From an uncultured Chloroflexia bacterium (GTDB taxonomy: Bacteria > Chloroflexota > Limnocylindria > Limnocylindrales > CSP1-4): a stretch of 64,000 nt of DNA. A model generated the notes under the pieces. That model was not told the origin of the DNA. It was given only the letters and a program-made list of their open reading frames with translations, and searched no databases. This document shows, one piece after another, positions 1,763 to 27,074 of this stretch. Location of the stretch: NCBI GenBank assembly GCA_963789725.1, contig CAWBLU010000003.1, forward strand, positions 317,473 through 381,472, written 5' to 3'. How positions within the stretch are numbered: the first letter of the stretch is position 1; every line of letters begins with the position of its first letter. The position numbers and the translations under genes are program-made.

Positions 1763-3156
1763 GGTCAAGTCCCAGGACGTGTGTAACAACGCGTCACCTC
1801 GCGTCTGATCGATTAGCTCGCCATGAGCAACGCTGTGTCGGCCTCCTTTCCATCGACGACGGCGTCGATGAGCACCATCGACTCCGGTCGGAAGTAGCGT
1901 CGCCCGTCCTGCCACTCGTCGTCCTGCTCGGCGAGGATCATCCCGACCAGCCGGATGACCGCAGCTCGGTTGGGGAAGATGCCAACCACGGCGGTCCGGC
2001 GCTTGATCTCCTTGTTGAGACGTTCGAGCGGGTTGGTGCTGCGGATCTGGCGCCTGTGAGTCTCGGGAAACGTGAAATGGGCGAGGAGGTCCGACTCGGC
2101 ATCGAGAAGCAACTGGGCGACGGTCGGAAAGCGCGGTTCCAGGGAGTCGATGACAGAGCTGAACTGCACGCGGGCGGCCCGCTCGTCGGGTTGCTCGAGG
2201 ACCGACCGGACGGCACTCGCGATCATGCTCCGGGCCGAGCGGGGCACGAGATCCTGGGCGTTGCGGGTGAGATGGACCCGGCAGCGTTGCCAGCCTGACC
2301 CGAGGAGCTGCTCGCGGATGGCCTTGACCAGACCTGCGTGATCGTCGCTGATGACCAGGCGGACGCCGTGGAGGCCACGGCCAACCAGAGAGCGGATGAA
2401 CGCCGGCCAGGCCGACCCCTCGTCATTGCCGGACGAGAGTTCGATCCCGAGCACGCGGCGCTCACCGCTCATGGCCACGCCTGTTGCGACCAGAGCTGCC
2501 ATGGACACGACCCGGCCGGCTTCGCGGACCTTGAGGTATGTCGCGTCGAACCAAACATAGGGATAGGTGGTGTCGTCGAGCGGACGCTTCCGGAAGGTCT
2601 CGACTTCGGCGTCGAGGGTGGCGCAGATGCGGCTGACTTCGCTCTTGGAGATCCCGGTGATGCCGAGGCTTTGGATGAGGTCGTCGACCCGGCGGGTGGA
2701 GACCCCCAGAACGTAGGCCTCCTGGACAACAGCGAGGAGGGCTCGTTCGGCCCGCCGGCGAGGCTCAAGCAGGCTCGGGAAGTAGTTGCCGTCTCGGACA
2801 CGCGGGATGGCGAGATCGATCGTGCCGACTCGGGTGTCCCAGCGGCGATCCCGATATCCGTTGCGGCTGGTCAGTCGGCGGTCGGGTGCTCGCTCGCCCT
2901 TCGGCACCCCTGTGATCTCGGTCACTTCGGCTTCCATCACGCCCTGGGCGAGCAGATGCACGGTCTCACGCAGGAAGTCGCCGTCGCCCTCTTCGATCGC
3001 CTTGCGAACGTTCTCGAGCAAAGCCATGCTGTCGTCGGCCATCGTGGTGTCCCTTTCGTCGTCGGTTTCTCACTTCCAACGACGCGAGGATGACGCGGTG
3101 GCCGTTTCTCTTCACGGCCTACCTGCTGCTGTTACACCAAGTGTGGGGACACGACC
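1763..3156 (-). mobile_element. IS256-family insertion sequence (1394 bp) with 8-bp target-site duplication
   Basis: Imperfect terminal inverted repeats: GGTCAAGTCCCAGGACGTGTGTAACA (1763-) versus the reverse complement of the right end, GGTCGTGTCCCCACACTTGGTGTAACA (-3156). Flanking direct repeat CGGCCCCC at 1755-1762 and 3157-3164. A single transposase ORF lies inside. Confidence 0.85.
1813..3042 (-). CDS. IS256-family (Mutator-type) transposase
   Basis: 409 aa. The N-terminal LRE..HLLAQGVMEAEVTEITG, NGYRDRRWDTRVGTIDLAIPRVRDGNYFPSLLEPRRR and FPNRAAVIRLVGMILAEQDDEW stretches are characteristic of the family. Confidence 0.95.
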   Translation of the reverse strand: MADDSMALLENVRKAIEEGDGDFLRETVHLLAQGVMEAEVTEITGVPKGERAPDRRLTSRNGYRDRRWDTRVGTIDLAIPRVRDGNYFPSLLEPRRRAERALLAVVQEAYVLGVSTRRVDDLIQSLGITGISKSEVSRICATLDAEVETFRKRPLDDTTYPYVWFDATYLKVREAGRVVSMAALVATGVAMSGERRVLGIELSSGNDEGSAWPAFIRSLVGRGLHGVRLVISDDHAGLVKAIREQLLGSGWQRCRVHLTRNAQDLVPRSARSMIASAVRSVLEQPDERAARVQFSSVIDSLEPRFPTVAQLLLDAESDLLAHFTFPETHRRQIRSTNPLERLNKEIKRRTAVVGIFPNRAAVIRLVGMILAEQDDEWQDGRRYFRPESMVLIDAVVDGKEADTALLMAS

Positions 3157-13947: not shown

Positions 13948-14628
13948 ATGCAGGAGATGGCCATGGCCGACGATCCTCAGCAACCCGGTCAACCACCTTC
14001 AGGAGCACCCGGCTCCTGGCCTCCGCCCCCGCCCCCGCAGCAGCCTGGTGGATACCCGCCGGCCCCCGGTTTTGCACCGCCGCCCCCTGGTTACAGCCAG
14101 CCGCCGCAGCCCGGATATCCGCCGCAGCCCGGTTATCCGCCGCAGCCCGGTTATCCGCCGCAGCCCGGTTATCCGCCGCAGCCGGGATACCCGGGAGCGT
14201 ACCCTCCTCCACCGTACGGCCAGCCGGCCGGGTATCCCGCACCCGCTTACGGCTATCCGCCACGGTATGCCGGCTTCTGGATTCGAGCCGCCGCCTACAT
14301 CCTCGACGGCTTCATCCTCTTCGCGATCATCCTCGTCTGCGCCATCACGATAGTCGGCATCCTGGCCATCCCGTTCGTGGCGATCGGATATCAGCCGTAC
14401 ATGTGGTGGAAGCGGGGAGCGACCTTCGGTCAGAGCGCCCTGGGCCTGCGCGTCGTCCGCGAGGTCGACGGCGGCCCGATCGACGGTGGCATGGCCGTGC
14501 TGCGGTTCCTCGGCATGATCGCCAGTGGCGCGATCTTCTACCTCGGATACATCTGGGTCGCGTTCGAGCCGCGCAAGCGGGGCTGGCACGACATGATCGC
14601 CGGGACCGTGGTCATCCACGTCAAGTAG
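13948..14628 (+). CDS. RDD family membrane protein with Pro/Gly/Tyr-rich N-terminal repeats
   Basis: The C-terminal half matches the RDD architecture (RAAAYILDGFI ... GWHDMIAGTVV). The start could be the ATG at 13963. Confidence 0.85.
   Translation: MQEMAMADDPQQPGQPPSGAPGSWPPPPPPQQPGGYPPAPGFAPPPPGYSQPPQPGYPPQPGYPPQPGYPPQPGYPPQPGYPGAYPPPPYGQPAGYPAPAYGYPPRYAGFWIRAAAYILDGFILFAIILVCAITIVGILAIPFVAIGYQPYMWWKRGATFGQSALGLRVVREVDGGPIDGGMAVLRFLGMIASGAIFYLGYIWVAFEPRKRGWHDMIAGTVVIHVK
14104..14192 (+). repeat. 18-bp in-frame tandem repeat x5 (PQPGYP) inside the RDD gene
   Basis: CCGCAGCCCGGWTATCCG is repeated head-to-tail. Confidence 0.85.
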
Positions 14629-14756: not shown

Positions 14757-15122
14757 TCAGCGAGCGGCCCCGATGAAGGCGCCGATGCGTCGCGCATCGT
14801 CCGAAACGTCGTCCCGGACTTCGGCTGCGACGGGATCGGACGACATCACCCCAACCAGGAGTCGCGGGCGTCGCGCAGTCTCCTGGTCGACGACTTCCGA
14901 GACCAGGCCGGCGAGCCGTGGCATCTCGGCGAGACCGAAGGCGACACCGTGTTCGGCAAGCTCTCCGAAGCCCCAGCCGTGATACAAACCGCGACTCGCG
15001 ACGTGGCACATCTCGTCGTACAACTCGGGCCACCCAACGCGCTTGCGTCTATGGCAGAACTTGACGAAGTCGAGGGCATTCTCTGCCGGGCTGAGATCCT
15101 CGGAACGCCTGCGCGAATCCAT
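14757..15122 (-). CDS. hypothetical protein
   Basis: 121-aa ORF with balanced composition, unlike the Arg/Pro-rich shadow ORFs around it. No family recognised. Confidence 0.5.
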   Translation of the reverse strand: MDSRRRSEDLSPAENALDFVKFCHRRKRVGWPELYDEMCHVASRGLYHGWGFGELAEHGVAFGLAEMPRLAGLVSEVVDQETARRPRLLVGVMSSDPVAAEVRDDVSDDARRIGAFIGAAR

Positions 15123-15580
15123 AGACGTACTCGCTCCTCTGTCACTCCTCTGTCACTGCCGGATCGGAATCCATGGACCTGGTGGCGGACCGCAGGCTCG
15201 GTCCAGGTCGGGATCTCGATCCCCCGCGCTTCTCTCCCCGCGGCAGGTTGGGATGCATCCTAGGCGGCAGGGAGTCCCCGGGGAAGGGTTTTCTCCACCA
15301 AGTGTTCCACGAAGTTGTCCACAGAACGGCCGTTCTAAGACCGCCTGTTCGAGCCCGCCCTTGTGACCGCGAACGGGACCGCCCGAACGACTAGAACACC
15401 GGTCTGAGGCGCCGAGAACCCTGGCTGAGCCCGGGCCACGGGGTGGAACGGTTCGCCCGCCCACTGCTCCGGTGGCGTGGCTCAGTTGTACGTGGCGCAT
15501 GGCCCCCGTTGGGCGAGTGGCGTGGAGCGTGCCGTCCGGGACCGGCCGGCGGTCAGGCGCGGCGGAGCAGCGGCCGAGAC

Positions 15581-15808
15581 TCAGGCGCGCAGCTGGCGGC
15601 GAGCCATCTCGGCTTCGATCTGGCGCTCGGCCTCGACGTAAGTGTCGATGCGGTCGCGCAGCTCGTTGGCGGTGGGAGTGTAGAGGTGAACCTGCTGCTG
15701 GAGGATGTAACTCAGGCGGCGGCTCGTCATGCGGACGTGGTCCAGGTTCTTCATCAGGACGAGCGGGTCCATGGCCGCGAGGTCGCTGGGTTCGTACATC
15801 AGCTTCAT
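15581..15808 (-). CDS. hypothetical small protein (75 aa)
   Basis: Internal ATG of a 294-aa track ORF. Only the last 75 aa (MKLMYEPSDL...EAEMARRQLRA) have protein-like composition. Confidence 0.5.
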   Translation of the reverse strand: MKLMYEPSDLAAMDPLVLMKNLDHVRMTSRRLSYILQQQVHLYTPTANELRDRIDTYVEAERQIEAEMARRQLRA

Positions 15809-15930
15809 GCACGGATTGTATTGGCCCGGCGCCAGACCGTCGCGGCCGGCGGGGGCTGCAGCGACCTCGGGCGAGGCCGAGGACGGCCACGGCCCGGCAG
15901 CGACCCGGCGCCGGGGCCGAGGCTGCCGAC

Positions 15931-17457
15931 CTAGAGGATGCGCGGCGACCGCGGCGGCCACGTCCAGTCGATCGGTAGCGTGGCGCCGTTGATCGCCCGG
16001 CGACGGCCGGCCTCGCTCGTGGCCAGGATCAGGATCCGTTCCACCTTCGTGGCCTGGCCCGCCTCGTCGCCCCACAGCTTGGTCATCTTGCGGCCGGCCG
16101 CCACATCGTCCATGGCTATTCCTGCGAGACGGTAGCCCTCCGGCGCCGCGGCCAGCTCCCAGACGGACTCGGCCAGGCCGACCCCTCCGCTCGCCGGGCG
16201 GCCGCGATCCATCTCCACGTCGCCGATGACGATGGCGACGACCGCGTCGTCGGCGAGGGCGGAACGAAGCCCGCGCAGGACCTCGCGCATGAACACGAGA
16301 TACGCGTCGCGGTGGTGAGCGTCGTCGAGGAGGTCGTCGATAGCCGCCGCGTCGTAGCCCAGGAGCCACAGACGCAGCCAGTTGTAGTAGCCGTACTTCA
16401 CGACCCGCAGGTAGGGCGGCGATGTCACGACGAGCCGCGCTCGCTCCGGCAGGCCGCGAGCGCACAACGCCTCGCGGGCACGGACGCCGGCGTCGCGCGC
16501 GTCTCCGAGAAGGGCGATGCCGCGGGCCGCGGGCACGGGCTGGCGGTACAGGCGCCGCAGCTTGTCCTCGAGCAGGGAGAAGACGTCGCGTTCGGGTGAG
16601 TGGAAGTCCGTCCGTTCGACGAAGTCACGGACGTAGCGTGGGGCCATGCTGAAGGTGTTGGGCATGATTCCGGACAGGTAGCTTCCGCTCTTGCCGTGGA
16701 GGATGCCGGTCAGCGTCGCCAGGACGAAGCGGTCCGTTCGATCGTCCGGGTCCAGGCCGGATCGGAGGAACAGCAGCGGGGCCAGCGTTCGAGGGTGGAA
16801 CGCGAAGGCGACCTCGGCCGGCACGGAGGAGTCAGGCCGGTTGAACGCCGAGCCCCCGCGTCCGTTAGAGAGGTCGGAGCCGGTCGAAGTCGATGCGGTG
16901 GAGCCACCGATCAAGCGGCTCGCTGGACCCGGCACTACCAGGTCGGGAGAGCCCGGGTTCGCCACGATCCCGTCGGCGAGGCTATTCCACTCATCGGCCG
17001 TGGCGGCCCAGGCCAGGCGCAGCGAGGCGACGCGGGTCTTGACGTCGGCCTTCGTGGGCGGATCGACCTTGGCCGCGGTCAGGATATGGGCAAAGGGGTT
17101 CAGGTCGTTGCCGGCGCCGATGCGGCCTTCCGCGCAGGCCTGCAGTGGTGTCGTGCCGCGACCGCTGAACGGGTCCAGCACGACGTCGCCGGGGCGGGTA
17201 TAGCGGGCGATGAAGGCATGCACGAGGGCTGCCGGGAAACTCGCTAGATACGAGCACATCGGATGGAAGCTGTGGCCCCAGAGCCGCTGCTGGTCCTTCC
17301 ATTCGGGCTCGATCGGCAGGTGCGGCAACTCGCTCGGGAGCTGGAGCGCCAGCTGGCCGTCTGTCGATGACGTCATGCCGCCTCGGATTCGCCTCGTCGA
17401 AAGAGGTTCCGGCGCATCGGGCGAAAAGCCGTCGAGTTCGAGCGGGAGCGAAGCCAC
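15931..17457 (-). CDS. N6-adenine/N4-cytosine DNA methyltransferase, no adjacent restriction gene
   Basis: AdoMet motif VVLDPFSGRGTT near the N-terminus. Catalytic motif TSPPY about 250 aa downstream. The start may be the internal Met (MTSSTDG). Confidence 0.85.
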   Translation of the reverse strand: MASLPLELDGFSPDAPEPLSTRRIRGGMTSSTDGQLALQLPSELPHLPIEPEWKDQQRLWGHSFHPMCSYLASFPAALVHAFIARYTRPGDVVLDPFSGRGTTPLQACAEGRIGAGNDLNPFAHILTAAKVDPPTKADVKTRVASLRLAWAATADEWNSLADGIVANPGSPDLVVPGPASRLIGGSTASTSTGSDLSNGRGGSAFNRPDSSVPAEVAFAFHPRTLAPLLFLRSGLDPDDRTDRFVLATLTGILHGKSGSYLSGIMPNTFSMAPRYVRDFVERTDFHSPERDVFSLLEDKLRRLYRQPVPAARGIALLGDARDAGVRAREALCARGLPERARLVVTSPPYLRVVKYGYYNWLRLWLLGYDAAAIDDLLDDAHHRDAYLVFMREVLRGLRSALADDAVVAIVIGDVEMDRGRPASGGVGLAESVWELAAAPEGYRLAGIAMDDVAAGRKMTKLWGDEAGQATKVERILILATSEAGRRRAINGATLPIDWTWPPRSPRIL

Positions 17458-17727
17458 AGGAACGATCTCCGAAGCGCAACCTTCTGGCGGACGGAACCGG
17501 GAGAGGCTCGGAGTCTAGCACCGCGCACGAGGCGCGACGAGGGGCCGACGGCACGATCGGTGAGGTTTTCCGCCAGCCGAGCCAGCTGCCCGACTGGCCG
17601 ACGGGACTGCCGGCGGGTGATCCAGGCCCGAGCCGTGGGACCGGCGATCCGGCGGAGACCGGCGCCGGGCTGGCCGGGCCGACCGCCTCCGGTTACGCTA
17701 CGTGCGGCGTTTGGAGCCACCTTCGGT

Positions 17728-17767
17728 GTCCCCGTAGCTCAGTGGATAGAGCGGCCGCCTTCTAAGC
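17728..17767 (+). pseudogene. 5' half of tRNA-Arg(TCT) (attL copy)
   Basis: 40 nt identical to positions 1-40 of the intact tRNA at 26985. Identity breaks at 17768, inside the anticodon stem. Confidence 0.9.
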
Positions 17768-17836
17768 CCAAATCTCCATCGGACGTGCTATCCCTCGTGA
17801 GCTTGGGACCGTGGAGCCCCTTGTTAGTTGCTCAGT

Positions 17837-18094
17837 TCACCCGTCCCGGTAGACCCTCCAATGGACCCTGCCACGGTCGGTGCCGATGGACCCCGGCCCG
17901 CCCACCCGAACCTTCGTGTTCAGGTACTCCTTTCGGAGTTCGGTCTCGAACTTGTCGGGAAACGCCGGGTCCGTGAGCGGGAAGGTCCAACTTCTGCCAA
18001 GGGCTCGTTCTACAGCCTCACGGAACGCCTTATCGCCGCCGGGATAGAGCAGCGCGATAACGTCGTTCACCCGCACTTCCTCGGGCTCGTCCAT
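17837..18094 (-). CDS. hypothetical protein (85 aa)
   Basis: Internal ATG at 18094 preceded by GAAAGGCGGGGG. The upstream part of the 143-aa track ORF is Arg/Ser-rich and overlaps the divergent gene. Confidence 0.45.
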   Translation of the reverse strand: MDEPEEVRVNDVIALLYPGGDKAFREAVERALGRSWTFPLTDPAFPDKFETELRKEYLNTKVRVGGPGSIGTDRGRVHWRVYRDG

Positions 18095-18232
18095 GATCCC
18101 CCGCCTTTCGTTGAATGGGACGCCACGCACCATGCTAGACCTTGTGCGCAGCCGCCCGTCCGTCACGCTGCGAGCAGCGTAGAGTCGGAGTGAAGCGTCC
18201 CCCGTATCGCAAATTCGTTGCAGAGGTGAGCC

Positions 18233-18607
18233 GTGATGGCTGGTCCGCCGTTTGAGATCGAGTTTCACCTTGGGGGTGGCGTCGTCGTTACTCTCGCGCT
18301 TCCAGAGGCAGCGCTCGCCAACCTTCGAGAACCGACGCTACGAGTTATGGCAGCTTCCGGCGTTCGAGGGGGATTCAGGAACGCAGTTCTCGGGATGCTC
18401 GACGCCGCAGTGACGAAGAACCTGACGGAGCCCGTGAGAGTCAGAGACGGCCAAACCTACTGGATCATCCCCACGCATGGCATCCAAGCGGTGCGATTTC
18501 GCGATCCCACAATAGCCGCCAAAGATCAGCGGATAGGCTTCCAGTATGACGACGGCCCGGCCTCGGACGAACAGGTCGAGGCTAGGCCCCCGACGCAGCC
18601 GGTCTAG
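18233..18607 (+). CDS. hypothetical protein (124 aa)
   Basis: GAGGTG lies upstream of GTGATG at 18230-18235. Protein-like composition. No family recognised. Confidence 0.5.
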   Translation: MMAGPPFEIEFHLGGGVVVTLALPEAALANLREPTLRVMAASGVRGGFRNAVLGMLDAAVTKNLTEPVRVRDGQTYWIIPTHGIQAVRFRDPTIAAKDQRIGFQYDDGPASDEQVEARPPTQPV

Positions 18608-18680
18608 CTGTCACGACGTAGCCGACCAGCGGAGCGCGAGCCAGAGCCGTCAGCGCTCGACACTGGGGGATGGCGTCCAG

Positions 18681-18899
18681 TCATCGGCCAAAGACCTGCC
18701 CGCACTGACCGACTTGGTAGGCGTCGGCTGATTGAGGGAGGGTGTTCCGGCAGATTGCCTGCAAGTACCCCTGCTCCACGATCGAATTGGAGTTCGACGT
18801 GTCGATGCCTTTCGCGATTCCGGTCAGCTGGAAGGCAACAACTGCCAGCAGCACGACCGTCAGCAGGTGTAGGGCCAGGCTCGCGTACTTCTGCTCCAC
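18681..18899 (-). CDS. small single-pass membrane protein (72 aa)
   Basis: TM segment LALHLLTVVLLAVVAFQL followed by a Cys-containing ectodomain. Visibly lower GC. Confidence 0.5.
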   Translation of the reverse strand: MEQKYASLALHLLTVVLLAVVAFQLTGIAKGIDTSNSNSIVEQGYLQAICRNTLPQSADAYQVGQCGQVFGR

Positions 18900-19036
18900 A
18901 GTTCCACCTCTCTCGTAGGTGGGACGCCCGGCCCCACTGTAGCTAGCCCCGGTCGCTGCCGCTCGACTGGCCGCACGTCTGCGGGATCGTCGGCGGGGTG
19001 GCGTTGCCGGGGCCAGAGGAGCCCAGTGGCGACGGC

Positions 19037-19882
19037 TTACGCCGCTGGGCCGAACCCACAGGTGACCTGGGTTGCTGCTAGATGGGTTGCGAAGGTGGAT
19101 TGGGCTGCCGCGATGGCAGCGACTCCCGCATTAATCTTGGCTACCGCTGCGTCCATCTTCTTCGCCTGTGCATTTGCGGCGGAAATCTGAGAATTGCCCT
19201 TGGCAATCCATGAATTCGCATCGGCCCACTGAAAATTGAAGGCCGCCTTGTACGCGTCGTAGTAGTCAGTGTTAGCCGCCGAGGTGGCAATTAGTCGGGC
19301 AGTCAGCGCCTTCTGCCAATCCGACCCTTGGGCGGTCGCGTTGTAGTTGGCCACCTGAAGGTCGTAGATGCTGTTCAGTTCGGCTGCGCTGGCGCTCAAC
19401 GCGTTGATGCAGGCTGTCTGTCGCTGTACCTGCCCGGCGAGCGTGGTTACCTGAGCCTGTGCACCCGTAAGCTGGCCCTTCGTCGTGGCGAGTTGGCCCT
19501 GCGTATCGGCCAGTTCGCTTTGGGTTGTAGCGAGCTGAGCCCGGGTTGTAGCGAGCTGACCCTGGGTACTCTGGAGATCGCTCCGATTGTGATTGAGATC
19601 GTTCACGGCAACTGCGGCGAAGGCTCCGGAGGCGATGACCAAGATCGCGAGCAAGCCAGCCAGTACCGGCAAGAATCGTCGACGGGCCACCGGGTGACGT
19701 GTCGACCAGGGCAGGGACGGCGCAAAGATCACGATCCGACTCGGCTCGGCGATTGGCGGCAGAGTCAACGCATTGGACCCGGCCCAATCGCTTACCGCCG
19801 GCGTCGTCTCCAACGGGGGCCGCGCCTCTGTCGCTGCTTCTGATATGGGTTCATACCGTGTGTCAAGAGGCCGCTGGTCCAT
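19037..19882 (-). CDS. membrane-anchored coiled-coil protein with QGQLATT-type repeats
   Basis: ATG at 19882 preceded by GAAGGAG. TM segment FLPVLAGLLAILVIASGAFAAVAV, then STQGQLATTRAQLATTQSELADTQGQLATTKGQLTGAQAQVTTLAGQ. Confidence 0.65.
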   Translation of the reverse strand: MDQRPLDTRYEPISEAATEARPPLETTPAVSDWAGSNALTLPPIAEPSRIVIFAPSLPWSTRHPVARRRFLPVLAGLLAILVIASGAFAAVAVNDLNHNRSDLQSTQGQLATTRAQLATTQSELADTQGQLATTKGQLTGAQAQVTTLAGQVQRQTACINALSASAAELNSIYDLQVANYNATAQGSDWQKALTARLIATSAANTDYYDAYKAAFNFQWADANSWIAKGNSQISAANAQAKKMDAAVAKINAGVAAIAAAQSTFATHLAATQVTCGFGPAA

Positions 19883-19966
19883 CTCCCGCACTCCTTCGCG
19901 TGTCTCTATGCGAGCGGCCGCCGACCCGACCAAGAGCGCCAGCCAACAATCCGTTGCACTCGCACT

Positions 19967-19996
19967 GAGTCTCGCGTGACCGAGTCTCGCGTGACC
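19967..19996. promoter_or_regulatory. tandem 15-bp direct repeat GAGTCTCGCGTGACC x2 upstream of the coiled-coil gene
   Basis: Exact head-to-tail duplication at 19967-19981 and 19982-19996, between the capsid-operon terminator and the next minus-strand gene. Confidence 0.4.
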
Positions 19997-20063
19997 GAAC
20001 GGGGATTCTCAGTACCCAACGGTCCTAGTCAGCAGCGCTGCTCACCTGCACCTGCGGCTAGGA

Positions 20064-20101
20064 CAAAAAAAGCCCCGGGAGAATGGCTAACTCCCGGGGC
20101 T
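20064..20101 (-). terminator. rho-independent terminator ending the capsid operon
   Basis: Minus strand: AGCCCCGGGAG-ttagccatt-CTCCCGGGGCT (11-bp perfect stem) followed by T7. It lies 40 nt after the capsid stop. Confidence 0.85.
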
Positions 20102-20141
20102 CTTGGTGGGGCGCGGGAAGCCGCTCGCCGCGCCTTGTGAT

Positions 20142-21107
20142 TTACGCCTGTCCAGAGGTCAGGACGCTAGCTTGAGTCTCGACAATCACGCCTTTGTAGC
20201 CTGCGGCCGAGAGCACGCTTGCCCCGATCCATGCCTTTACGCCCACGTCAAGAATTTGCTTGAGCGGGTCACCGTGGCCACCCGGAGGCGTCACGATTAC
20301 CTCGACCGTGGAAACGTCTCCCATGCCGAGGAAGCCGGGACCGTAGACATAGCTGCGAATGACATCCTTGCCGGATGTAGCCGTGGCATACGAGCCGACG
20401 ACCGTACTCGAAAGGATGCGGGCGCCCGCAAAGGTTCCCACCTCGCCGGCCAGTAGAGGCTCATTGTCCACGTACTTCGTGGAGTCGAGGAAACCGCCAA
20501 CGGCGGAATCGGTCGAGAGGTCGATGATCGCCCTGGGCGACATGATCGCCCGGTAGTAACCATCGGTGAACGGGGCCACGTTAGTCATCCTGAGGCGGCC
20601 GACTGCCTGCTTGAGAAGGAGGCCGGTCATCTTGGAGTCAACGGTGGAGCGCGAGACTGCGGCGGAGGTACCGCCGTAGATGATGTTGGTTGATGCCGTC
20701 ATGGCGTTCATGGCGATCAATGCAGTTGTGTCGATGCACTCAGCCGCCCAACGGGCGGCCTTCTCGGCAGCCACGGAAGCGAGCTGGTGCGGCGATTCAA
20801 ACTGCGCCAGGTCGGTGATCTGAATGAGCTTGCCGCGCTGAGTGGCGGAGAAGCTATCGATACTGATGGTCAGGCCGACGCCAGCGGGGGCGACGCCTTC
20901 CACGAGGGCCGTGGACGTGTCGGCTACATAAGCGATGTCACCGTACGCGGCCTTCACGAAGGTATTGGTTCCCGGCTCATGGCGAAAGTCGTCAAAGCTG
21001 CCAGGAGTGGCAAAGACGAGAGCGCTTCTCAGCGCCTCTTCGAGACGCTTCTCGACCATGTCCTGGACGAGGTCGGCGAAGTTGCTGGTAGCAGTGGTGA
21101 GGGCCAT
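20142..21107 (-). CDS. HK97-fold major capsid protein (resembles the N4-gp56 MCP family)
   Basis: 321 aa. Overall pattern (...SIDSFSATQRGKLIQITDLAQFES..., ...APFTDGYYRAIMSPRAIIDL..., ...GEVGTFAGARILSS..., ...PPGGHGDPLKQILDVGVKAW...) matches my recollection of this MCP family. RBS AAGGA lies 8 nt upstream. Confidence 0.75.
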   Translation of the reverse strand: MALTTATSNFADLVQDMVEKRLEEALRSALVFATPGSFDDFRHEPGTNTFVKAAYGDIAYVADTSTALVEGVAPAGVGLTISIDSFSATQRGKLIQITDLAQFESPHQLASVAAEKAARWAAECIDTTALIAMNAMTASTNIIYGGTSAAVSRSTVDSKMTGLLLKQAVGRLRMTNVAPFTDGYYRAIMSPRAIIDLSTDSAVGGFLDSTKYVDNEPLLAGEVGTFAGARILSSTVVGSYATATSGKDVIRSYVYGPGFLGMGDVSTVEVIVTPPGGHGDPLKQILDVGVKAWIGASVLSAAGYKGVIVETQASVLTSGQA

Positions 21108-21149
21108 CGGATCATCCTTTCGGACGTATGCGTTCGATAGCCCACGAGG

Positions 21150-21455
21150 TCACCGCCGGCGCGGAGTGTCCATGCCGAATTCCTCCCAACTGGCGTTTCG
21201 CAACGCTTCCTCAGGATCGGGCGGGCGATATGACTGCCGGGGTGCACGGTTGGGGTCGATGCGCGGTTCGGGGCGGGACTCTAGAGCGGCTTGAGCAGCG
21301 GCGAGGTCGGCTTCAGCAGCCGCGGCTCGTCTCAGCGCTTCGTCGCGCTCGTTCGTTCGCTTCCCAAGGCTGGCCATCAACTTGTTTACGCGGCCTGCGA
21401 TGTCCGCACCATCTTGCGAGTCGCCTTCCGGCTCCTGCGAATACTGGTCCGACAT
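21150..21455 (-). CDS. acidic coiled-coil protein, possible scaffolding protein
   Basis: 101 aa, directly upstream of the MCP gene with a 42-nt gap. Acidic N-terminus and an alanine-rich helix (RRAAAAEADLAAAQAALE). Function is inferred from position only. Confidence 0.45.
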   Translation of the reverse strand: MSDQYSQEPEGDSQDGADIAGRVNKLMASLGKRTNERDEALRRAAAAEADLAAAQAALESRPEPRIDPNRAPRQSYRPPDPEEALRNASWEEFGMDTPRRR

Positions 21456-22694
21456 TGTGTCCGTATACCTCTCGTGGTGGGCCGTTGTTTAGTAAACGGC
21501 TCGGGGCTAACATACACCGTGAATGCAAGAGCGCGCCCCACGGCCTGACAGCCTCTACCGCACACCGTTGATAAGTGTGCAAGAGCCCGACGCGGACGAG
21601 TGTCTATGTGTGGCGTGCCGCGACTTGAGGGCCGCGCTGGACCGTCATACGGAAGCCATCAGGAAGGGACTCGGACATACCACGAGAGGGGCCGTTCGAT
21701 CCGCTGCCGCTCGGGCTGACGTACGACACGGCCTCCAATGGTTGCCCGTTGTTTCGCGCGAGCCAGAGGAACAGAAGCCCGAGAGGGTGAAAGATCCCGT
21801 TCGTGTGGCGATGGGACTCCGAGGCGTGGCGACCCGGAGACGTAACGCGGCCCTATGGGGCGTCTAGGAGCCACGCAGAGCGACGTTTGCCCGAGAGGTG
21901 GGGAAAATGGGCACCTGTCGGGTTTCTGACACCTGACGAATGGGTACAAATGTACCCAGCAAGCGCCGCCACTGTGACGGCATAGCGGCGTGGTGGCGTG
22001 CCGTTGTAGTGGCGTTGCTGTGCAAGGGGGTTGCTCTGCGGAGGTCTGCTCTTCGCCCCTCGCGCCTTGCCGGCCAACAAATGCTGTGCCCCGCCGTCCC
22101 GGCCTCGTGGAATTCTCGCGGCGCGGCCCCCTCTCTACGTGGGATCGAGCAACTAACAACGGCACGGCGGGCAGCCGAGCCACGCTCGCGCAGCCACGGA
22201 TAGAGTCATACGCCAAGGAGGCAGTCGCTCTATCGGATGAGGCCAGGCAGGGGCTCTAGGGTGTGCAGGTGGCCAGGGTGCAGAGGGGTGGGAGCGGCGA
22301 GAGTAGGACGAACCCTCCATCGCAGCGCAGGCCGCACCGCACACCGAAAGGGCCGCAGTGCCGCGCTTTCCTACCTTCTATGCGCAGCCGGGCCTGCACC
22401 CGGTCCCTCTTGCACACTTGCACACCATCGCTCCTGCTGCCGCAAGCACTCCGGGGTTGCCACACCCTCGCCACACGCCAGCACCCGGACAGGGTTCTCC
22501 AGAACCCCGCCCGGGGCCGCCGCTCCGGTCCTCCACATGCTCGTTTGCATCCGCTCGCGCATCTCGCTCCTCATTGGGTGCGCCCAGCAGAATCTGCAAG
22601 GGAGACGCGTCTCGGGTGGGTGGGTCCAATTGGCCGGCCACAGATGGTTGTCCTCTGCGACGAGGGTAGAGTTCCGTGCGCTCAGGGGGCCAGA

Positions 22695-22881
22695 TGATGC
22701 GTTCAGGTGATGCGTTCGGGCCTTGGAGCCCTCGGGGCGACGTGATGCGCGGCTTGATGCGTTCGCGCTCATGGGGTGATGCGTCGGGTGATGCGTTCAC
22801 GAAGGCGACGTGATGCGCGGCTTGATGCGTACCGCGAACGCATCATCGGGGGCAACCCTATGGTTGCCCCATGATGCGTTC
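22695..22881. promoter_or_regulatory. iteron array / candidate replication origin
   Basis: TGATGCGTTC or close variants at 22695, 22708, 22743, 22755, 22777, 22789, 22811, 22823 and 22872 (direct), and at 22836-22845 (inverted). A 9-bp-stem hairpin sits at 22849-22870. The 27-29-bp block GGCGACGTGATGCGCGGCTTGATGCGT is duplicated (about 22735 and 22803). Confidence 0.65.
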
Positions 22882-22896
22882 GCTGGTCAGCCGGGG

Positions 22897-23874
22897 CTAC
22901 TTGGTAGCCCATGTGTGGGGCCTCTTGGTCGGGTCCATGACGAACCGTTGAGGGTTCCGACTGAGGTCCAGCCGGAGGTATTGCTCGCTCACGATGCGGG
23001 CGGTGTCTTCCTTGATCGCCGCCGCGATCTGCTTGACGTTCAGGTTGGGGGTGACTGCCAGGACGGCGGCCGCCAGGTCGGCGAAGCTCTGGCGCGGCGG
23101 GGTAGAGGAGGTCTCGATCGTGCCGTCGGGAAAGAAGCTGAAGGTGACGAACTGGGGCGGGTACTTGGCCCGGCCGTTGGCCTTGCGGTTGCGGAGTTCG
23201 AGTTCGACGGTGTGCGGACCGAAAGCGATGAGGTCGGGGTCCGAGTCTTCGGCCTGGTCTCCGATCGCCTCTACTGCCCACGTCTCGCGGGCCAGGTTGT
23301 GAACGAAGACGCTGCCGAACGGACGAGCTGGCCACTTCTCGGCCGCGCCGGCGACGTGGGCGATGGTCAGGCTCGGTAGTCCGATCCGGGTTAGGGCGGT
23401 GAAGTACTCCTGCGCGGCCTGCTTGCCGCCCATGGCGTCGCCGCTCGACGTGGCGACGGAGTAGCTATCGACTACGAGGTAGGTGGCATCGAGTCGATAT
23501 CGCTCGACGCGGAGCAGGTCGGCGACCTCATCGAGCGAACCGCGATCGGCCAGCCAGTCGGGCCCAAAGGGGGCCCGGTAGTGGACGTGATCGAGTTCCT
23601 CGTCGCTGAGTCCGAGACCGCGAAGCCGCGAGCCCCATTCCCGCTCGTGGCCCTCGAAGTCCACCAGCAGGACGACGTGGCCCGCTCTGACGAGCCGGTT
23701 GATTAGGTGGCAGGTGAATACGCCTTTGCCCGTGCCGCCGGGACCGAAGATCACGGTTGCGTCTTCGGGAGTCAGGTAAGGCTCGGCGAGTTGATCCGGT
23801 GGAACGCCAAACAGAAGATCGCGCGCCGTACGGGTGCCGATGGAGGGGAGGCGCTTGAGCGGTTCGGCGATCAT
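22897..23874 (-). CDS. P-loop RecA-like replicative helicase/ATPase (RepA / AAA_25-like)
   Basis: Walker A GPGGTGKG, Walker B VVLLVDFEG. ATG at 23874 overlaps the prim-pol stop (ATGA). Confidence 0.8.
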   Translation of the reverse strand: MIAEPLKRLPSIGTRTARDLLFGVPPDQLAEPYLTPEDATVIFGPGGTGKGVFTCHLINRLVRAGHVVLLVDFEGHEREWGSRLRGLGLSDEELDHVHYRAPFGPDWLADRGSLDEVADLLRVERYRLDATYLVVDSYSVATSSGDAMGGKQAAQEYFTALTRIGLPSLTIAHVAGAAEKWPARPFGSVFVHNLARETWAVEAIGDQAEDSDPDLIAFGPHTVELELRNRKANGRAKYPPQFVTFSFFPDGTIETSSTPPRQSFADLAAAVLAVTPNLNVKQIAAAIKEDTARIVSEQYLRLDLSRNPQRFVMDPTKRPHTWATK

Positions 23875-24770
23875 GCTGCCGCCGCCAGTCGAGCGGCCTG
23901 CCAGGCCGTGATACCGCGTCCGTCTTCGTAGGCTGGGCAGGTTGTCGCATGACACCATGCCCGCCGATCGTCGGCGGCAATCTTCATCGACGGATTCCGG
24001 TCCGGGTGGAATGGGCAGCGGATCGACTGGCCCGGCCTGACGGCCAGCCCGAACCGCTCCGCCAGAACTGCGCAGATCCCGCCGTCGTTGTCGCGATCAT
24101 CACGATGGTCATGGCGAATCGATCGCTGCGGCGGTGTACGGGGCACGTGACGTTCGGCCAGGCTGGCGATGGCGGCGGGGTCCGCCAGCTCGAGCGCCAG
24201 GAGCGCCCCGGCGACCTTGGAATGGAGGGGCGCTCCGGTAGGCGGATCGAGCAGCCCAAACCGCTCGTGCGTTGCGGGATGGGCCATCCAGGGCGCGCGG
24301 AGCGAGCCACCGGCATACGCGCTCGTTGCCCGGTCCGTGTTCGGCCGGAGTTCGATGCGCTTATCGGTTGGGTCCAGCCCGGCCGCCTCGATCGCTGCCA
24401 GCAGCGCCCGCCGCCCGACGATCGCGGGCACGGCCTCACTGGCGACGATCCAGATATGCCCGCCCCGGCGCGAGTGCTCCGGGTAGCAGGCCACGCCCGC
24501 GGCGAGCAGGGCCGAGACGATCGCCTTGACGCCTGACCACTCATCAGCGTCAACGTCCACGGCCAGGACGTGCGTCGACTCCTCGTTGAGAAAGAACACG
24601 GAGAGCGGAGGTCCGTCGGCCGCGAGTGCGGCGACGATGATCTCCGTCGTTGGCTCGCCGGAACACGGCAGCCAGTGATCGGCGGCGGTGTCCCATACGG
24701 AATAGCGGGGTCCAGATGAGAAGGTGGTCCAGTAGAGGCTGGCCACGTCTTCCGGTCGATAGGCGGTCAT
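23871..24770 (-). CDS. bifunctional DNA primase/polymerase (prim-pol) with C-terminal CHC2 zinc finger
   Basis: VLAVDVDADE (DxD) and RRGGHIWIV prim-pol motifs. CPFHPDRNPSMKI...WCHATTC zinc finger. Confidence 0.85.
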   Translation of the reverse strand: MTAYRPEDVASLYWTTFSSGPRYSVWDTAADHWLPCSGEPTTEIIVAALAADGPPLSVFFLNEESTHVLAVDVDADEWSGVKAIVSALLAAGVACYPEHSRRGGHIWIVASEAVPAIVGRRALLAAIEAAGLDPTDKRIELRPNTDRATSAYAGGSLRAPWMAHPATHERFGLLDPPTGAPLHSKVAGALLALELADPAAIASLAERHVPRTPPQRSIRHDHRDDRDNDGGICAVLAERFGLAVRPGQSIRCPFHPDRNPSMKIAADDRRAWCHATTCPAYEDGRGITAWQAARLAAAA

Positions 24771-25147
24771 GCGTCACCGTCCATCGCCAGGTCGGCAAGG
24801 CGACCGGCCAGGTTGCGGAACACGGCGGCGGTTGCCGCATCGCCTCGGTCCTCGGCGAGTTGCGCGGCGAACTCACAGCGATCGACCATTGCCGAGAGTT
24901 GCCCATCGTCGGAGTGCCGATCGACAACGCGGCCAACTTCGGGGTTGATGCCCCATTGGATCGCACGGCTGACGGCCTGTGCCGTCCGGAGTCGAGCCTC
25001 GTACGTGTTGATCTCGGCTCGCACTGCGTCGATCTGCACGCGTTGGTCGGCGATGTGAATGAGGCGACCTTTGATCTCGGGATCGTCTCGCAGGTGCTCG
25101 GGTACTTCGGGCAGGGCAGTATGATTACGAGGGGTTGACGCTGACAC
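24767..25147 (-). CDS. hypothetical protein (126 aa)
   Basis: GTG at 25147 preceded by GGGAGG. The stop overlaps the prim-pol start (ATGA). Confidence 0.5.
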   Translation of the reverse strand: MSASTPRNHTALPEVPEHLRDDPEIKGRLIHIADQRVQIDAVRAEINTYEARLRTAQAVSRAIQWGINPEVGRVVDRHSDDGQLSAMVDRCEFAAQLAEDRGDAATAAVFRNLAGRLADLAMDGDA

Positions 25148-25439
25148 GTCGGCCTCCCTCGGACGCCACCGGACTCTGACCTTCGGTGGCGTCTTCTCGT
25201 ATGGTCTTGGAGCGGGACGCTCGCAAAGCAAGCGAAGCCATGTAGCTCTTGCGAGCGTAGGCGGCACGGCGGGCGCGCTCGTCCGGGGCTAGAGTGCCGT
25301 CCGGATCGACTTGCCGCTCGAACCGCTCAAGGAACTTGGCCGTAGCTGCCCGGGTGTTAGTGCCGCCTTGGCTGTGTAAGGCATAGGCAGCCGCGCGGGC
25401 GCGCAACGTCCGTTGCTTTGGAGTGAGGCTGACAACCAT
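25125..25439 (-). CDS. hypothetical basic protein (104 aa)
   Basis: ORF with protein-like composition in the integrase-replication module. No family assigned. Confidence 0.5.
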   Translation of the reverse strand: MVVSLTPKQRTLRARAAAYALHSQGGTNTRAATAKFLERFERQVDPDGTLAPDERARRAAYARKSYMASLALRASRSKTIREDATEGQSPVASEGGRRVSVNPS

Positions 25440-25579
25440 GTGCGACTCCAGCCCGACGCCTCAACGTCTGGCGAGTCACCCGGCTGGGCCTCTACGTGGT
25501 CCCCAGTTGTCGGAGGAACTTCGATCTATGCTCTGATTCTAGCACGCCGATTGTGCGCGGTGCTTATCTACCGCCCATA

Positions 25580-25972
25580 TCAGGTCCACGGCCTGCGCAT
25601 CTTGGATACGTGGACGGCTTGGCCTCGGTCACATATGGGCTCGGGACAGTGGACGTAGAAATCCGTTCGTGTCTTCAGTCCGCCAGCCGATCCCCGAACG
25701 ATGCTCCCGCCGACCTCGACCGAAAGGTTGTGCCTGATGGGGTCAGTGCGCCCCGGCCTCTTGGGCGGTCCATATTGCGGGAGCCCCGTCGCCGCGTGGA
25801 TAGTGCCTCTGGCCACGAGGCGCGACGAAAGGGCGACATACCAGCGCGGGTTTGGGTCGCGTCCGGGTATGTCGCTGTTGCTGGCTTCGGCGAGACGCTT
25901 ACCGCATGAGTAGCAGTTCGCATACGTCCACGAACCGTCGCCGTCGTAGACGGCCTCTCTTGTCTCGGTCAT
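25580..25972 (-). CDS. hypothetical Cys-containing protein (130 aa)
   Basis: CYSCGK ... CPEPIC suggests a zinc ribbon. The ATG overlaps the integrase stop (ATGA at 25969-25972). Confidence 0.5.
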   Translation of the reverse strand: MTETREAVYDGDGSWTYANCYSCGKRLAEASNSDIPGRDPNPRWYVALSSRLVARGTIHAATGLPQYGPPKRPGRTDPIRHNLSVEVGGSIVRGSAGGLKTRTDFYVHCPEPICDRGQAVHVSKMRRPWT

Positions 25973-26874
25973 AGCCGGTCGGCCGGCGAGCGGTAGTTCG
26001 CGCGGGCTCGCTCATCTGCTGCGCTCGCTCCGTAACGGTTCAACATCTGGCGGCTGCGCCAACCTGCCAACCGCATCAAGTCGCCTTCCTGCCCACCGTC
26101 GGCCAACCACGTATGCGCGAAGCCGTGACGGAATTGATGCGCGTGAATTCTCGGGAGACCGGCAGCAGCGGCGCGCTTGGCGATCATCTGCCCGAATGCC
26201 GAGACGGTCAGGGGGCCATCCTGCCCGAGCCACAGTTCCTCACGGTCGGCGTAGCGGTGGCTCTTGCGTAGACGTAGGTACCTGTCGATCGCAATGGCGG
26301 TCTTCGTGCCGAAGCGGACGGCGCGGGTGTGCCCGCCCTTGCCGGTGACGTAGGCGAGGCGGTCCTTCAGTTCGACATCGGCGAGCTTCAGTCCCGCCAG
26401 TTCGCCCCGGCGGATGCCGGTATCGAACAAGACGTAGAGGATCGCGGCATCGCGGCGGTCCACGATCTCCCGCCCGGTCGTGGTCTTGAGGATCTTGAGG
26501 AAGTCGGCATTGGCCACGAGCGGCACCGGCTTATCGGGGACGCGGGGAGCCTTCATCTTCTCCATCGGGCTCCGGTCGATCTCGTCTTCCTCTGCCGCCC
26601 ATCGCCAGAACTGCTGCAAAGCCCTGAATTCAATCGATAGGGTCGCCGGGGCCACCGTCTCGCGCCTCTCGGCAAAGTAGCTCTCGACGTGTTCTCTCCG
26701 GACGGCCCGCGTCCCGGTCGGCATCCCCTTGGCTTCGAGGTGCCCGATCAGGTGATCGAGCGCGGCTAGGTAGATCCGGTTCGTCTTCGGAGAGCGGTCT
26801 GCCGCTAGGTGTAGCGCGAAACTGTCGCGTAGACTGAGGAGCGCATCGGGCGCCCGAGTCGAGGTTTGCACCAT
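25969..26874 (-). CDS. int: tyrosine recombinase / phage-type integrase
   Basis: N-terminal SAM-like core-binding domain. Catalytic residues in GIRRGELAGL (R), HQFRHGFAH (HxxR) and LAGWRSRQMLNRYGA (Y). Confidence 0.95.
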   Translation of the reverse strand: MVQTSTRAPDALLSLRDSFALHLAADRSPKTNRIYLAALDHLIGHLEAKGMPTGTRAVRREHVESYFAERRETVAPATLSIEFRALQQFWRWAAEEDEIDRSPMEKMKAPRVPDKPVPLVANADFLKILKTTTGREIVDRRDAAILYVLFDTGIRRGELAGLKLADVELKDRLAYVTGKGGHTRAVRFGTKTAIAIDRYLRLRKSHRYADREELWLGQDGPLTVSAFGQMIAKRAAAAGLPRIHAHQFRHGFAHTWLADGGQEGDLMRLAGWRSRQMLNRYGASAADERARANYRSPADRL

Positions 26875-26984
26875 GATTCACCACCTACTGTTAGTTGCTC
26901 AGTTGCTCGACGTGCTAACTGTAGAGCGGGCGAATCAGGGGGTCAAGACGAGACTTTCACGCTCAATGTGAGCAACCGCCTAGT

Positions 26985-27057
26985 GTCCCCGTAGCTCAGT
27001 GGATAGAGCGGCCGCCTTCTAAGCGGCGGGTCGTGGGTTCGAATCCCGCCGGGGACG
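26985..27057 (+). tRNA. tRNA-Arg (anticodon TCT); CCA encoded at 27058-27060
   Basis: Hand-folded cloverleaf: acceptor GTCCCCG/CGGGGAC, D-arm GCTC/GAGC, anticodon stem GCCGC/GCGGC with loop CTTCTAA, T-arm GTGGG TTCGAAT CCCGC. Confidence 0.95.
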
Positions 27058-27074
27058 CCAATTCCCGCCGCACG

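Follow-up and report, generated by a model that had tools for sequence, protein, structure and literature searches.

A half-length scaffold-like gene and an N4-type capsid gene as the probable capsid module of a 9.3-kb tRNA-integrated element

Introduction

Phage satellites are known to take over whole heads of their helpers, to change helper heads with the aid of a small scaffold, to contribute a single coat homolog (Ccm), or to supply a full set of head genes of their own. Here we describe two adjacent genes, one for a major capsid protein (MCP) and one for a short scaffold-like partner, in a stretch of 64,000 nucleotides from an uncultured Chloroflexia bacterium (GenBank assembly GCA_963789725.1, contig CAWBLU010000003.1, positions 317,473 to 381,472), which as a whole is called the window below. 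Together the two genes probably make up the capsid module of an integrative phage satellite, 9,257 bp in length, that builds or remodels small capsids. The family that they represent would bring exactly two shell-forming proteins, with the scaffold cut to half its phage length, and would add an uncultured, high-GC lineage to those that harbour satellite-like elements.

The closest published architecture is that of the 'mini HK97 entities', which measure 8.9 +/- 0.6 kb, have an MCP and a scaffold as their only structural genes, encode an integrase and replication of the RepA/helicase type, and carry no terminase, portal or tail (bioRxiv 10.1101/2025.06.18.659913). The element in the window shares this layout, at ~9 kb with MCP and scaffold only, an integrase, a RepA/helicase-type protein, and no portal, terminase or tail genes. 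It differs in having phage-capsid domains only (Phage_capsid_3/4), whereas the MCP domains of the 'mini HK97 entities' are of the encapsulin type, and in replication genes that combine a primase-polymerase (prim-pol) with an AAA_25 ATPase. The published group comes from the human gut and carries sigma factors, repressors and quorum-sensing genes, while the contigs analysed here come from environmental assemblies (one with 'forest' and another with 'WOOD' in its record name). We rate the present element as an independent, N4-type origin of a 'shell plus scaffold only' island.

In SaPIbov5, a pathogenicity island of Staphylococcus aureus that is of the cos type, a satellite-encoded coat homolog, Ccm, redirects capsid size (PMC8569155; PMC5052747). 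SaPIbov5 and the present element are alike in being small, integrative and of satellite type, with an HK97-fold coat homolog and without portal, terminase or tail genes. SaPIbov5 has no island scaffold, however, and its Ccm takes only the pentamers in a shell otherwise made of helper coat, whereas the coat gene described here is always paired with a half-length scaffold homolog, encodes an MCP of the N4-gp56 type and resides in an uncultured high-GC host. The likeness to Ccm is one of architecture.

CpmB of SaPI1 and Sid of P4 are small satellite proteins that serve as short alternative scaffolds and force a smaller triangulation (T) number; both act on the coat of the helper, SaPI1 and P4 having no coat gene of their own. 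CpmB has a C-terminal coat-binding motif in common with the scaffold of its helper, and the partner described here likewise shares its C-terminal region with a phage protein in scaffold position, so that the likeness to these proteins is again one of layout.

Like the present element, capsid-forming phage-inducible chromosomal islands (cf-PICIs), MulchRoom/MiniFlayer and EPIPs have an MCP and a scaffold of their own (PMC10690885, PMC12822802, bioRxiv 10.1101/2022.09.08.507074). They add some or all of portal, protease, head-tail connectors, TerS/TerL, HNH and tape measure genes and reach 11-18 kb or more, whereas the element in the window has none of these extra genes. A complete head and packaging set defines the cf-PICIs; here the MCP gene and a scaffold-like gene are all that was found of it.

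Results and discussion

The gene pair lies in a tRNA-integrated element with its own integrase and replication genes

The reading as a satellite that hijacks a helper is the best one because the pair sits in a 9.3-kb, tRNA-integrated element that has integrase and replication genes. This element occupies positions 17768-27024 and is integrated at tRNA-Arg(TCT), where a 42-nt direct repeat, 100% identical, is found at 17726-17767 and 26983-27024. The left attachment site (attL, 17726-17767, plus strand) is a displaced copy of the 5' half of tRNA-Arg(TCT) that runs from acceptor stem to anticodon loop. On the plus strand, 26983-27060 comprises attR together with the intact gene for this tRNA (26985-27060; ARAGORN; Rfam tRNA, 69.8 bits). 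The contig of a related island, L011, ends in the same 42-nt repeat. GC content is 64.3% in the element versus 67.6% in the window.

The tyrosine integrase (25969-26874, minus strand; phrog_1, 4.9e-37; XerC/D-type matches below their cutoffs) is 86% identical in amino acid (aa) sequence to the integrase that a second related island, L010, has at the same tRNA, and the region's sole sigma-70-like promoter match (26946-26918) lies upstream of it. The replication set consists of an archaeo-eukaryotic primase (AEP prim-pol; 23871-24770, minus strand) with a C-terminal zinc-finger-like segment, which matches PF22548 AEP-TOTE at 1.4e-8 and phrog_2304 DNA primase at 1.1e-3, and of an AAA_25 (RepA/DnaB-like) P-loop ATPase (22897-23958, minus strand; probable true start ATG at 23874). 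The match of the latter to PF13481 (4.7e-6, 26.8 bits) falls just below the 27-bit cutoff, and the protein is 62-67% identical to its counterparts in the related loci L008 and L007.

In tBLASTn searches with structural proteins from three related phage contigs, among them TerL, portal and adaptor, only the MCP was found in the 64-kb window, in agreement with the 'lone' capsid gene of a preliminary description of this DNA, and the same searches found no other phage structural gene in the related islands. Searches of Pfam, PHROG and NCBIfam found no other head, tail or lysis families in the element except for weak matches of a 298-aa cargo protein. The element has several of the marks of a satellite, namely an integrase with att repeats, a replication set, and a small size without most virion and lysis genes.

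The island lies upstream (on the 5' side) of tRNA-Arg(TCT), and L010 is arranged alike. Since the att repeat corresponds to the 5' half of this tRNA, it is the island that supplies the functional tRNA with that half and with its upstream region; integrated elements usually do the reverse and replace the 3' end of the tRNA.

Two other classes of element were considered and rejected. An actinomycete integrative and conjugative element would have an FtsK/SpoIIIE-type Tra translocase, and the only P-loop protein here is the AAA_25 protein, whose match to the TraG P-loop is weak (E 0.0051, 15.9 bits versus a cutoff of 25.8). The Dehalococcoides IME1 elements are 21-28 kb long, filamentous-virus-like and without an MCP.

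The two genes form an operon closed by an intrinsic terminator

The MCP open reading frame (ORF; 20142-21107, minus strand) encodes 321 aa, and the scaffold-like, half-length partner ORF upstream of it (21150-21455, minus strand) encodes 101 aa, with a spacing of 42 nt between them. Sequences resembling ribosome-binding sites (GAGG/AAGGA) stand 8-11 nt 5' of both ORFs, and the coding bias of the genome is visible in the MCP ORF (GC content 0.75 at third and 0.50 at second codon positions, GC3 and GC2).

An intrinsic terminator (20065-20101, minus strand) with an 11-bp perfect stem and a T7 run closes the two-gene operon. Positions 20101-20091 pair with 20081-20071 across a 9-nt loop and are followed by TTTTTTT; on the minus strand this reads AGCCCCGGGAG-TTAGCCATT-CTCCCGGGGCT, then the T-run. 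Its fold (dG -28.9 kcal/mol, z -4.8) was equalled by 0/200 shuffles, although a pattern/consensus scanner passed it over because the 9-nt loop exceeds the scanner's 8-nt limit. Of the six related loci compared, the window, L006, L008 and L010 have a hairpin with a T-run 3' of the MCP gene. Both ORFs, the 42-nt gap and the 11-bp-stem, T7 terminator are thus as the preliminary description had them, the terminator being confirmed by folding. An additional, first GC-rich hairpin (GGCGCG...CGCGCC) lies between the MCP stop codon and the terminator (20102-20141 in the window) and is kept in three islands, the other two being those of L006 (1330-1360) and L008 (10877-10905).

The coat protein is an N4-gp56-type, HK97-fold capsid protein

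The MCP matched the curated NCBIfam model TIGR04387, 'N4-gp56 family major capsid protein', at 97.6 bits (curated cutoff 60; E 8.5e-28) over residues 9-310 of 321. It also matches phrog_1357 major head protein (5e-26) and, in Pfam, Phage_capsid_3/4 and no other capsid-type domain, and a sequence profile built from its relatives matches capsid proteins of solved structure (9d7z, E 6e-6). The AlphaFold2 (AF2) model of the MCP used 131 homologs, an earlier input of 14 sequences having given an unusable pLDDT of 44.7. This model (pLDDT 82.7, pTM 0.80) shows a helix at residues 8-26, beta hairpins at 39-55 and 81-98, a spine helix at 109-134 and C-terminal sheets, with domain boundaries taken from secondary structure only. 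In Foldseek searches against the PDB, the top matches were the capsids of the cyanopodophage Pan3, the Shigella phages B2 and Moo19, and N4 (E 1e-14 to 1e-12, TMq 0.6-0.68, probability 1.00), and the best match in BFVD was an N4-gp56-family MCP (TM 0.79). The preliminary description had assigned the protein to the N4-gp56-type, HK97-fold MCPs, and the curated model, the AF2 prediction and Foldseek bear this out: the fold is of HK97 type, phage capsids come first, and the best profile match is to a capsid family.

The same searches bear on the possibility, also raised in that description, of a non-viral compartment shell related to encapsulins. A mobile element would in this case carry an encapsulin-like nanocompartment, for which the 101-aa protein would serve as cargo or targeting adaptor. 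An HK97 fold without a portal and a small partner gene directly upstream, as in encapsulin operons, would fit such a compartment, and encapsulins do occur among the fold matches in the PDB. They appear only at ranks 38 and 49, however, with TMq values of 0.47-0.48 compared with 0.6-0.79 for phage capsids, and the encapsulin Pfam families gave no match to the MCP at E<=0.01. In addition, Pfam and NCBIfam searches found no enzymatic domain in the partner, which is homologous to a phage head-module gene, and the genes downstream of the pair vary among islands. The module is always on integrase/replicase islands. A nanocompartment is therefore disfavoured, and we regard it as very unlikely.

In a neighbor-joining tree of 134 sequences, the five island MCPs that were included formed an exclusive clade, and the MCP of the window sits within a family of MCPs found mostly on phage-like contigs. 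These five share a private C-terminal tail, ..(I/V)L(A/T)(A/S)GQ(A/H), which is present in 0/129 of the other sequences in the tree; the sixth island MCP, that of L097, was judged separately, and its C-terminus as read by eye is ..AAGQV. The island MCPs are 39-51% identical to one another, and the single unsaturated pair, L010/L011, has a dN/dS of 0.11. Judged from their sequences, the island MCPs are an old monophyletic clade under purifying selection.

The 101-aa partner corresponds to part of a phage protein in scaffold position

On four phage contigs (L001, L002, L014 and L015) the gene order is TerL, portal, a protein of ~700 aa, one of ~1100 aa, an ORF of 185-192 aa and, 23-45 nt later, the MCP. 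Homology links the 101-aa partner to the C-terminal region of this 185-192-aa ORF, with a BLASTP E of 5e-6 and a common motif PEPRIDxN, and hhalign of the partner against the four phage ORFs gave a probability of 94.2% (E 1.1e-7, 45 columns). In the alignment, the partner is without ~50 N-terminal and ~35-40 internal residues of the phage ORFs. It is mildly acidic (pI 4.9), has a net charge of -6 over its first 20 residues, and is rich in Ala, Glu and Arg in residues 21-60. What had been described as an acidic protein where a scaffold would be thus proved to be the homolog of a phage protein in scaffold position.

The partner gave no match in Pfam, PHROG, NCBIfam or, by sequence, the PDB, and PDB sequence searches with the partner and phage-scaffold profiles returned coiled-coil noise only. 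Its five close homologs are 66-78% identical to it, four being 100-101 aa long and one called as 123 aa. Exhaustive HMMER searches of 1.84 billion cluster representatives gave 30 partner clusters at E<=0.001; among the 16 best (E<=2.5e-7), 15 are 97-112 aa long and matched almost end to end, and one is 144 aa. Pairwise dN/dS is ~0.21-0.24, in pairs with dS >1. Because of these lengths and ratios, the short partner is, on sequence grounds, a stable family and not a pseudogene. Scans for the partner family in genome, viral and metagenome contigs found nothing.

Between islands, the partner is much better conserved (66-78% aa identity) than the adjoining MCP (44-51% for the window, L008, L010 and L011), which is the reverse of what we expected for scaffold and coat proteins.

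The four phage contigs form a coherent, undescribed group of 65-69% GC. Three of the four show an SU10-type adaptor, and their structural module holds glycosyltransferase, methyltransferase or dTDP-sugar genes.

The module recurs on islands with different backbones

The partner and MCP pair occurs in at least five other metagenomic contexts, which makes at least six including the window. It is found on L006/L099, where L006, a short contig, has an MCP 51% identical to that of the window and a terminator; on L008/L009/L100, with a serine recombinase and AAA_25 on L008, L100 being a short contig; on L010/L011/L012/L013/L101, with the same tRNA-Arg site and a tyrosine integrase in L010/L011, L101 being a short contig; and on L097/L098, with a Fic cargo gene on L097. 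In L010, a DUF3631 replicase takes the place of the prim-pol and AAA_25 genes. The window island measures 9.3 kb, and two others are estimated at ~9.3 kb (the L010+L011 composite) and ~9.7 kb (L008, by gene content, flanked by chromosomal nucleotide-metabolism genes). The sole genome match for an island gene was in a metagenome-assembled genome (MAG) of Candidatus Limnocylindrales, and scanning with the MCP profile yielded, among genomes, a single phage-like MAG contig that is unrelated, and no match in IMG/VR.

The region after the MCP gene is different in each island for which there is context, and defence-like genes are among the cargo: PD-T4-5/AbiD (1.6e-10) in L010, a HIRAN protein matching PDC-S48 (8e-10) in L008, SLFN_AlbA_2 with DUF5677 in L011, and Fic in L097. 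P4-like and PICI satellites also carry defence-like cargo. L010 (2047-6913) and L011 (1-4867) are 100% identical for ~4 kb, including the whole partner gene; divergence, of up to 12.5%, begins ~100 nt into the MCP gene, and the cargo beyond is unrelated. The position of this break and the unrelated cargo indicate a recombination breakpoint inside the coat gene that would swap the cargo slot. A swappable, defence-like cargo slot beside the module, together with a breakpoint in the coat gene, suggests a route for cargo exchange.

These comparisons also bear on whether the pair is merely a decaying prophage remnant, the last two head genes having no current function. Decay does occur, in that a truncated MCP fragment (residues 38-117) is carried on the 75-kb contig L102/L103. 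In the window, however, neither ORF is disrupted, RBS-like motifs and a terminator are present, and the att repeats are perfect. The pair persists in at least six contexts with different backbones, its MCPs form an old monophyletic clade with a dN/dS of 0.11, and the short partner length is kept in 15/16 of the best clusters. These signs of conservation largely refute a remnant, and we hold it to be extremely improbable.

The fragment itself lies at 255-470 of L102 (Ga0187878_1000205) and in L103, where only residues 38-117 of an island-type MCP are left. It is contained in a 183-aa ORF beside an 894-aa ORF, is 50% identical over the best-matching residues 38-109, and has apparently decayed or been recruited.

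How a two-gene module could serve a satellite

If the element is a satellite, infection by or induction of a related helper phage would lead to excision of the island, which would then replicate from its own iteron origin, and the two-gene operon would be expressed from its long leader. The short scaffold and the island coat, either by themselves or mixed with helper coat in the manner of Ccm, would form a small procapsid suited to ~9-10 kb of DNA, at roughly T=3 to T=4. Assembly would use the helper portal, the helper terminase would fill the head, and a helper tail would be attached, so that the island would spread and the yield of the helper would probably be lowered. In P22, coat and scaffolding protein suffice for procapsid-like shells without a portal.

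We infer the helper dependence, the capsid re-sizing and the particle size in this scheme. The two largest encapsulin shells have projected capacities of ~5 and 10 kb, and P4 (11.6 kb) and SaPI1 use T=4 capsids (bioRxiv 10.1101/2025.06.18.659913); set beside a genome of 9-10 kb, these values suggest T=3 to T=4. Such islands would offer a small natural system in which to examine how capsid size is set by the length of the scaffold and the sequence of the coat, and they bear on the lower genome-size limit of HK97 particles. They would also provide a link to an N4-type-capsid phage group known only from metagenomes.

Several findings weigh against the satellite reading. No helper phage was identified, the MCP identity to the GenBank phage collection being <=29%, and the nearest phage MCPs, on phage-like contigs of 10-44 kb, are only 37-43% identical. 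Family searches recognised no packaging signal, TerS, repressor or excisionase in the island. The role assigned to the ~190-aa phage proteins as scaffolds derives from gene order and position alone; the 185-192-aa proteins have no match in Pfam, PHROG or the PDB and belong to no scaffold family found there, and at the extreme C-terminus the partner ends in ..SWEEFG versus ..GNPFF in the phage version. Finally, no copies of the island were found among the viral contigs of IMG/VR, so these gave no sign of encapsidation. Outside the MCP gene, the leader and the element have no nucleotide similarity to the related phage contigs, and consequently no common pac/cos site could be shown.

The missing packaging functions would be expected if the module served for interference only. 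As a decoy, the coat and mini-scaffold would poison or misdirect the head assembly of an infecting phage and give an abortive, defence-like protection, and the island would remain unpackaged and move by other means. Defence-like cargo stands beside the module in related islands, no packaging gene or signal was found in the island, and Ccm-type and CpmB-type proteins lower helper yield, according to PMC8569155 and PMC10690885. However, the known capsid-redirecting proteins serve satellite packaging besides interference, the clustering of island sizes at ~9-10 kb across different backbones suggests a head-size constraint, and a full-length coat under purifying selection exceeds the needs of a decoy. 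We therefore consider a purely interfering role rather unlikely.

The architecture shared with the 'mini HK97 entities' (an integrase, RepA/helicase-type replication, structural genes limited to MCP and scaffold, the lack of portal, terminase and tail, and 9.3 kb in the same size range) raises a different possibility, namely that the element is autonomous and portal-less and tail-less, a minimal virus-like element of temperate habit whose shell encloses its own ~9-kb genome free of any helper, which is also the proposal made for the 8.9-kb gut entities. If so, the element would be the environmental equivalent, with an N4-type capsid, of these 'twilight-zone' entities, and such entities would have arisen repeatedly from ordinary tailed phages. 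Yet no known mechanism fills an HK97 shell with double-stranded DNA without portal and terminase, the MCP nests in a family of ordinary 35-50-kb phages equipped with TerL and portal, it is without the encapsulin-type domains by which the published group is defined, and searches of viral contig collections found no copies. Helper-free encapsidation thus seems improbable to us.

Non-coding regions of the element

The capsid operon is preceded by a leader of ~0.9 kb (21456-22370, minus strand) with no detectable coding signal and a GC content that does not vary with codon phase. In L010/L011 and in L008, the partner gene has a gap of 1.0-1.1 kb on its 5' side, and the L008 gap contains one called 89-aa ORF on the opposite strand. 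Long ORFs within the leader of the window (e.g. 21659-22216) were rejected as genes on account of their flat codon-phase GC and Arg/Pro-rich translations.

Within the leader, a conserved non-coding patch of 95 nt (22138-22232, minus strand) is 76.5% identical to L010 4751-4845 and L011 2705-2799, whereas the leader around it cannot be aligned to L010/L011. Its blocks include TAGAGCgACyGCCTCCTTGGCGTATGACTCTATC and TGTTAGTTGCTC; for the patch, a role as promoter/operator, RNA or packaging site is conceivable. The motif CTCTTGCAC(A/T)C has four copies, in both orientations, at 21521-22425 in the leader region, out of six in the 64-kb window, and the related islands lack it.

Directly downstream of the AAA_25 gene lies an iteron cluster (22689-22883, no strand assigned) with ~10 copies of (A/C)CGCATCA in both orientations, as counted by eye, including two perfect 27-nt copies. 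A 185-nt stretch of the cluster holds 8 of the window's 30 matches to GATGCGYK. By its features, the cluster is a probable replication origin.

A 77-nt element (25120-25196, minus strand) is 92% identical to L008 6478-6554, with flanks that cannot be aligned, and folds as two adjacent hairpins (-36.9 kcal/mol, z -3.1). It is common to two islands whose integrases are of different type. It belongs to no Rfam family and has no exact copy in representative genomes; Rfam searches of the island found nothing but the tRNA.

Cargo and other small genes of the element

Four cargo ORFs lie between attL and the terminator. The first (17837-18268, minus strand; 143 aa) has a coding GC3 pattern and no match in Pfam, PHROG, NCBIfam or PADLOC, and the second (18233-18607, plus strand; 124 aa) has no family match in Pfam, PHROG or PADLOC; a 50-nt segment just beyond the stop codon of the latter (18587-18636) is 96% identical to L011 6150-6199. 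The third (18681-18899, minus strand; 72 aa; GC3 0.76, GC2 0.45) has a hydrophobic N-terminal segment, as seen from its sequence, and likewise matches no family. The fourth (19037-19933, minus strand; 298 aa) has a hydrophobic, likely transmembrane segment at residues 90-108 followed by QLATT-type coiled-coil repeats, and gave weak coiled-coil-type matches only (SMC, tape measure, LmuB). PADLOC gave no credible match for the cargo genes of the window.

Beyond the leader, a small Cys-rich ORF (22371-22772, minus strand; conserved part 22404-22661) is 38% identical over 86 aa to L008 8198-8455 and L009 186-443 in tBLASTx (E 8e-19). Three further minus-strand ORFs lie between the prim-pol and integrase genes. 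One, of up to 166 aa (24767-25267), has a likely internal start and no family match. The next (25125-25439) encodes a conserved small protein of 104 aa that is 64% identical to L010 1758-2081, with a weak match to DUF7285 (PF23956, 5.4e-4) that falls below the cutoff. The third (25580-25972; 130 aa) overlaps the integrase stop codon, is 51% identical to L010 1251-1619, and has no family match.

Chromosomal surroundings

The genes flanking the element are chromosomal and include a Na+/H+ exchanger, a subtilase, glutamate synthase and transporters. In representative genomes, the closest matches to the glutamate synthase (GltB) reach 66% identity at most and are scattered over many phyla. Just outside attL, the region 14757-17457 holds a 508-aa N6/N4 DNA methyltransferase (PF01555, 1.3e-16) and two ORFs (245 and 121 aa) without a family match; they could form a restriction-modification system or be what is left of an adjacent island. 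An insertion sequence with an intact Mutator-family transposase (1813-3042; PF00872, 2.4e-127) is located at a distance of about 15 kb from the element. At 14038-14190, at the start of a gene for an RDD-family membrane protein (13948-14628), seven in-frame copies of an 18-nt unit encode repeats of the Pro-Gln-Pro-Gly-Tyr type.

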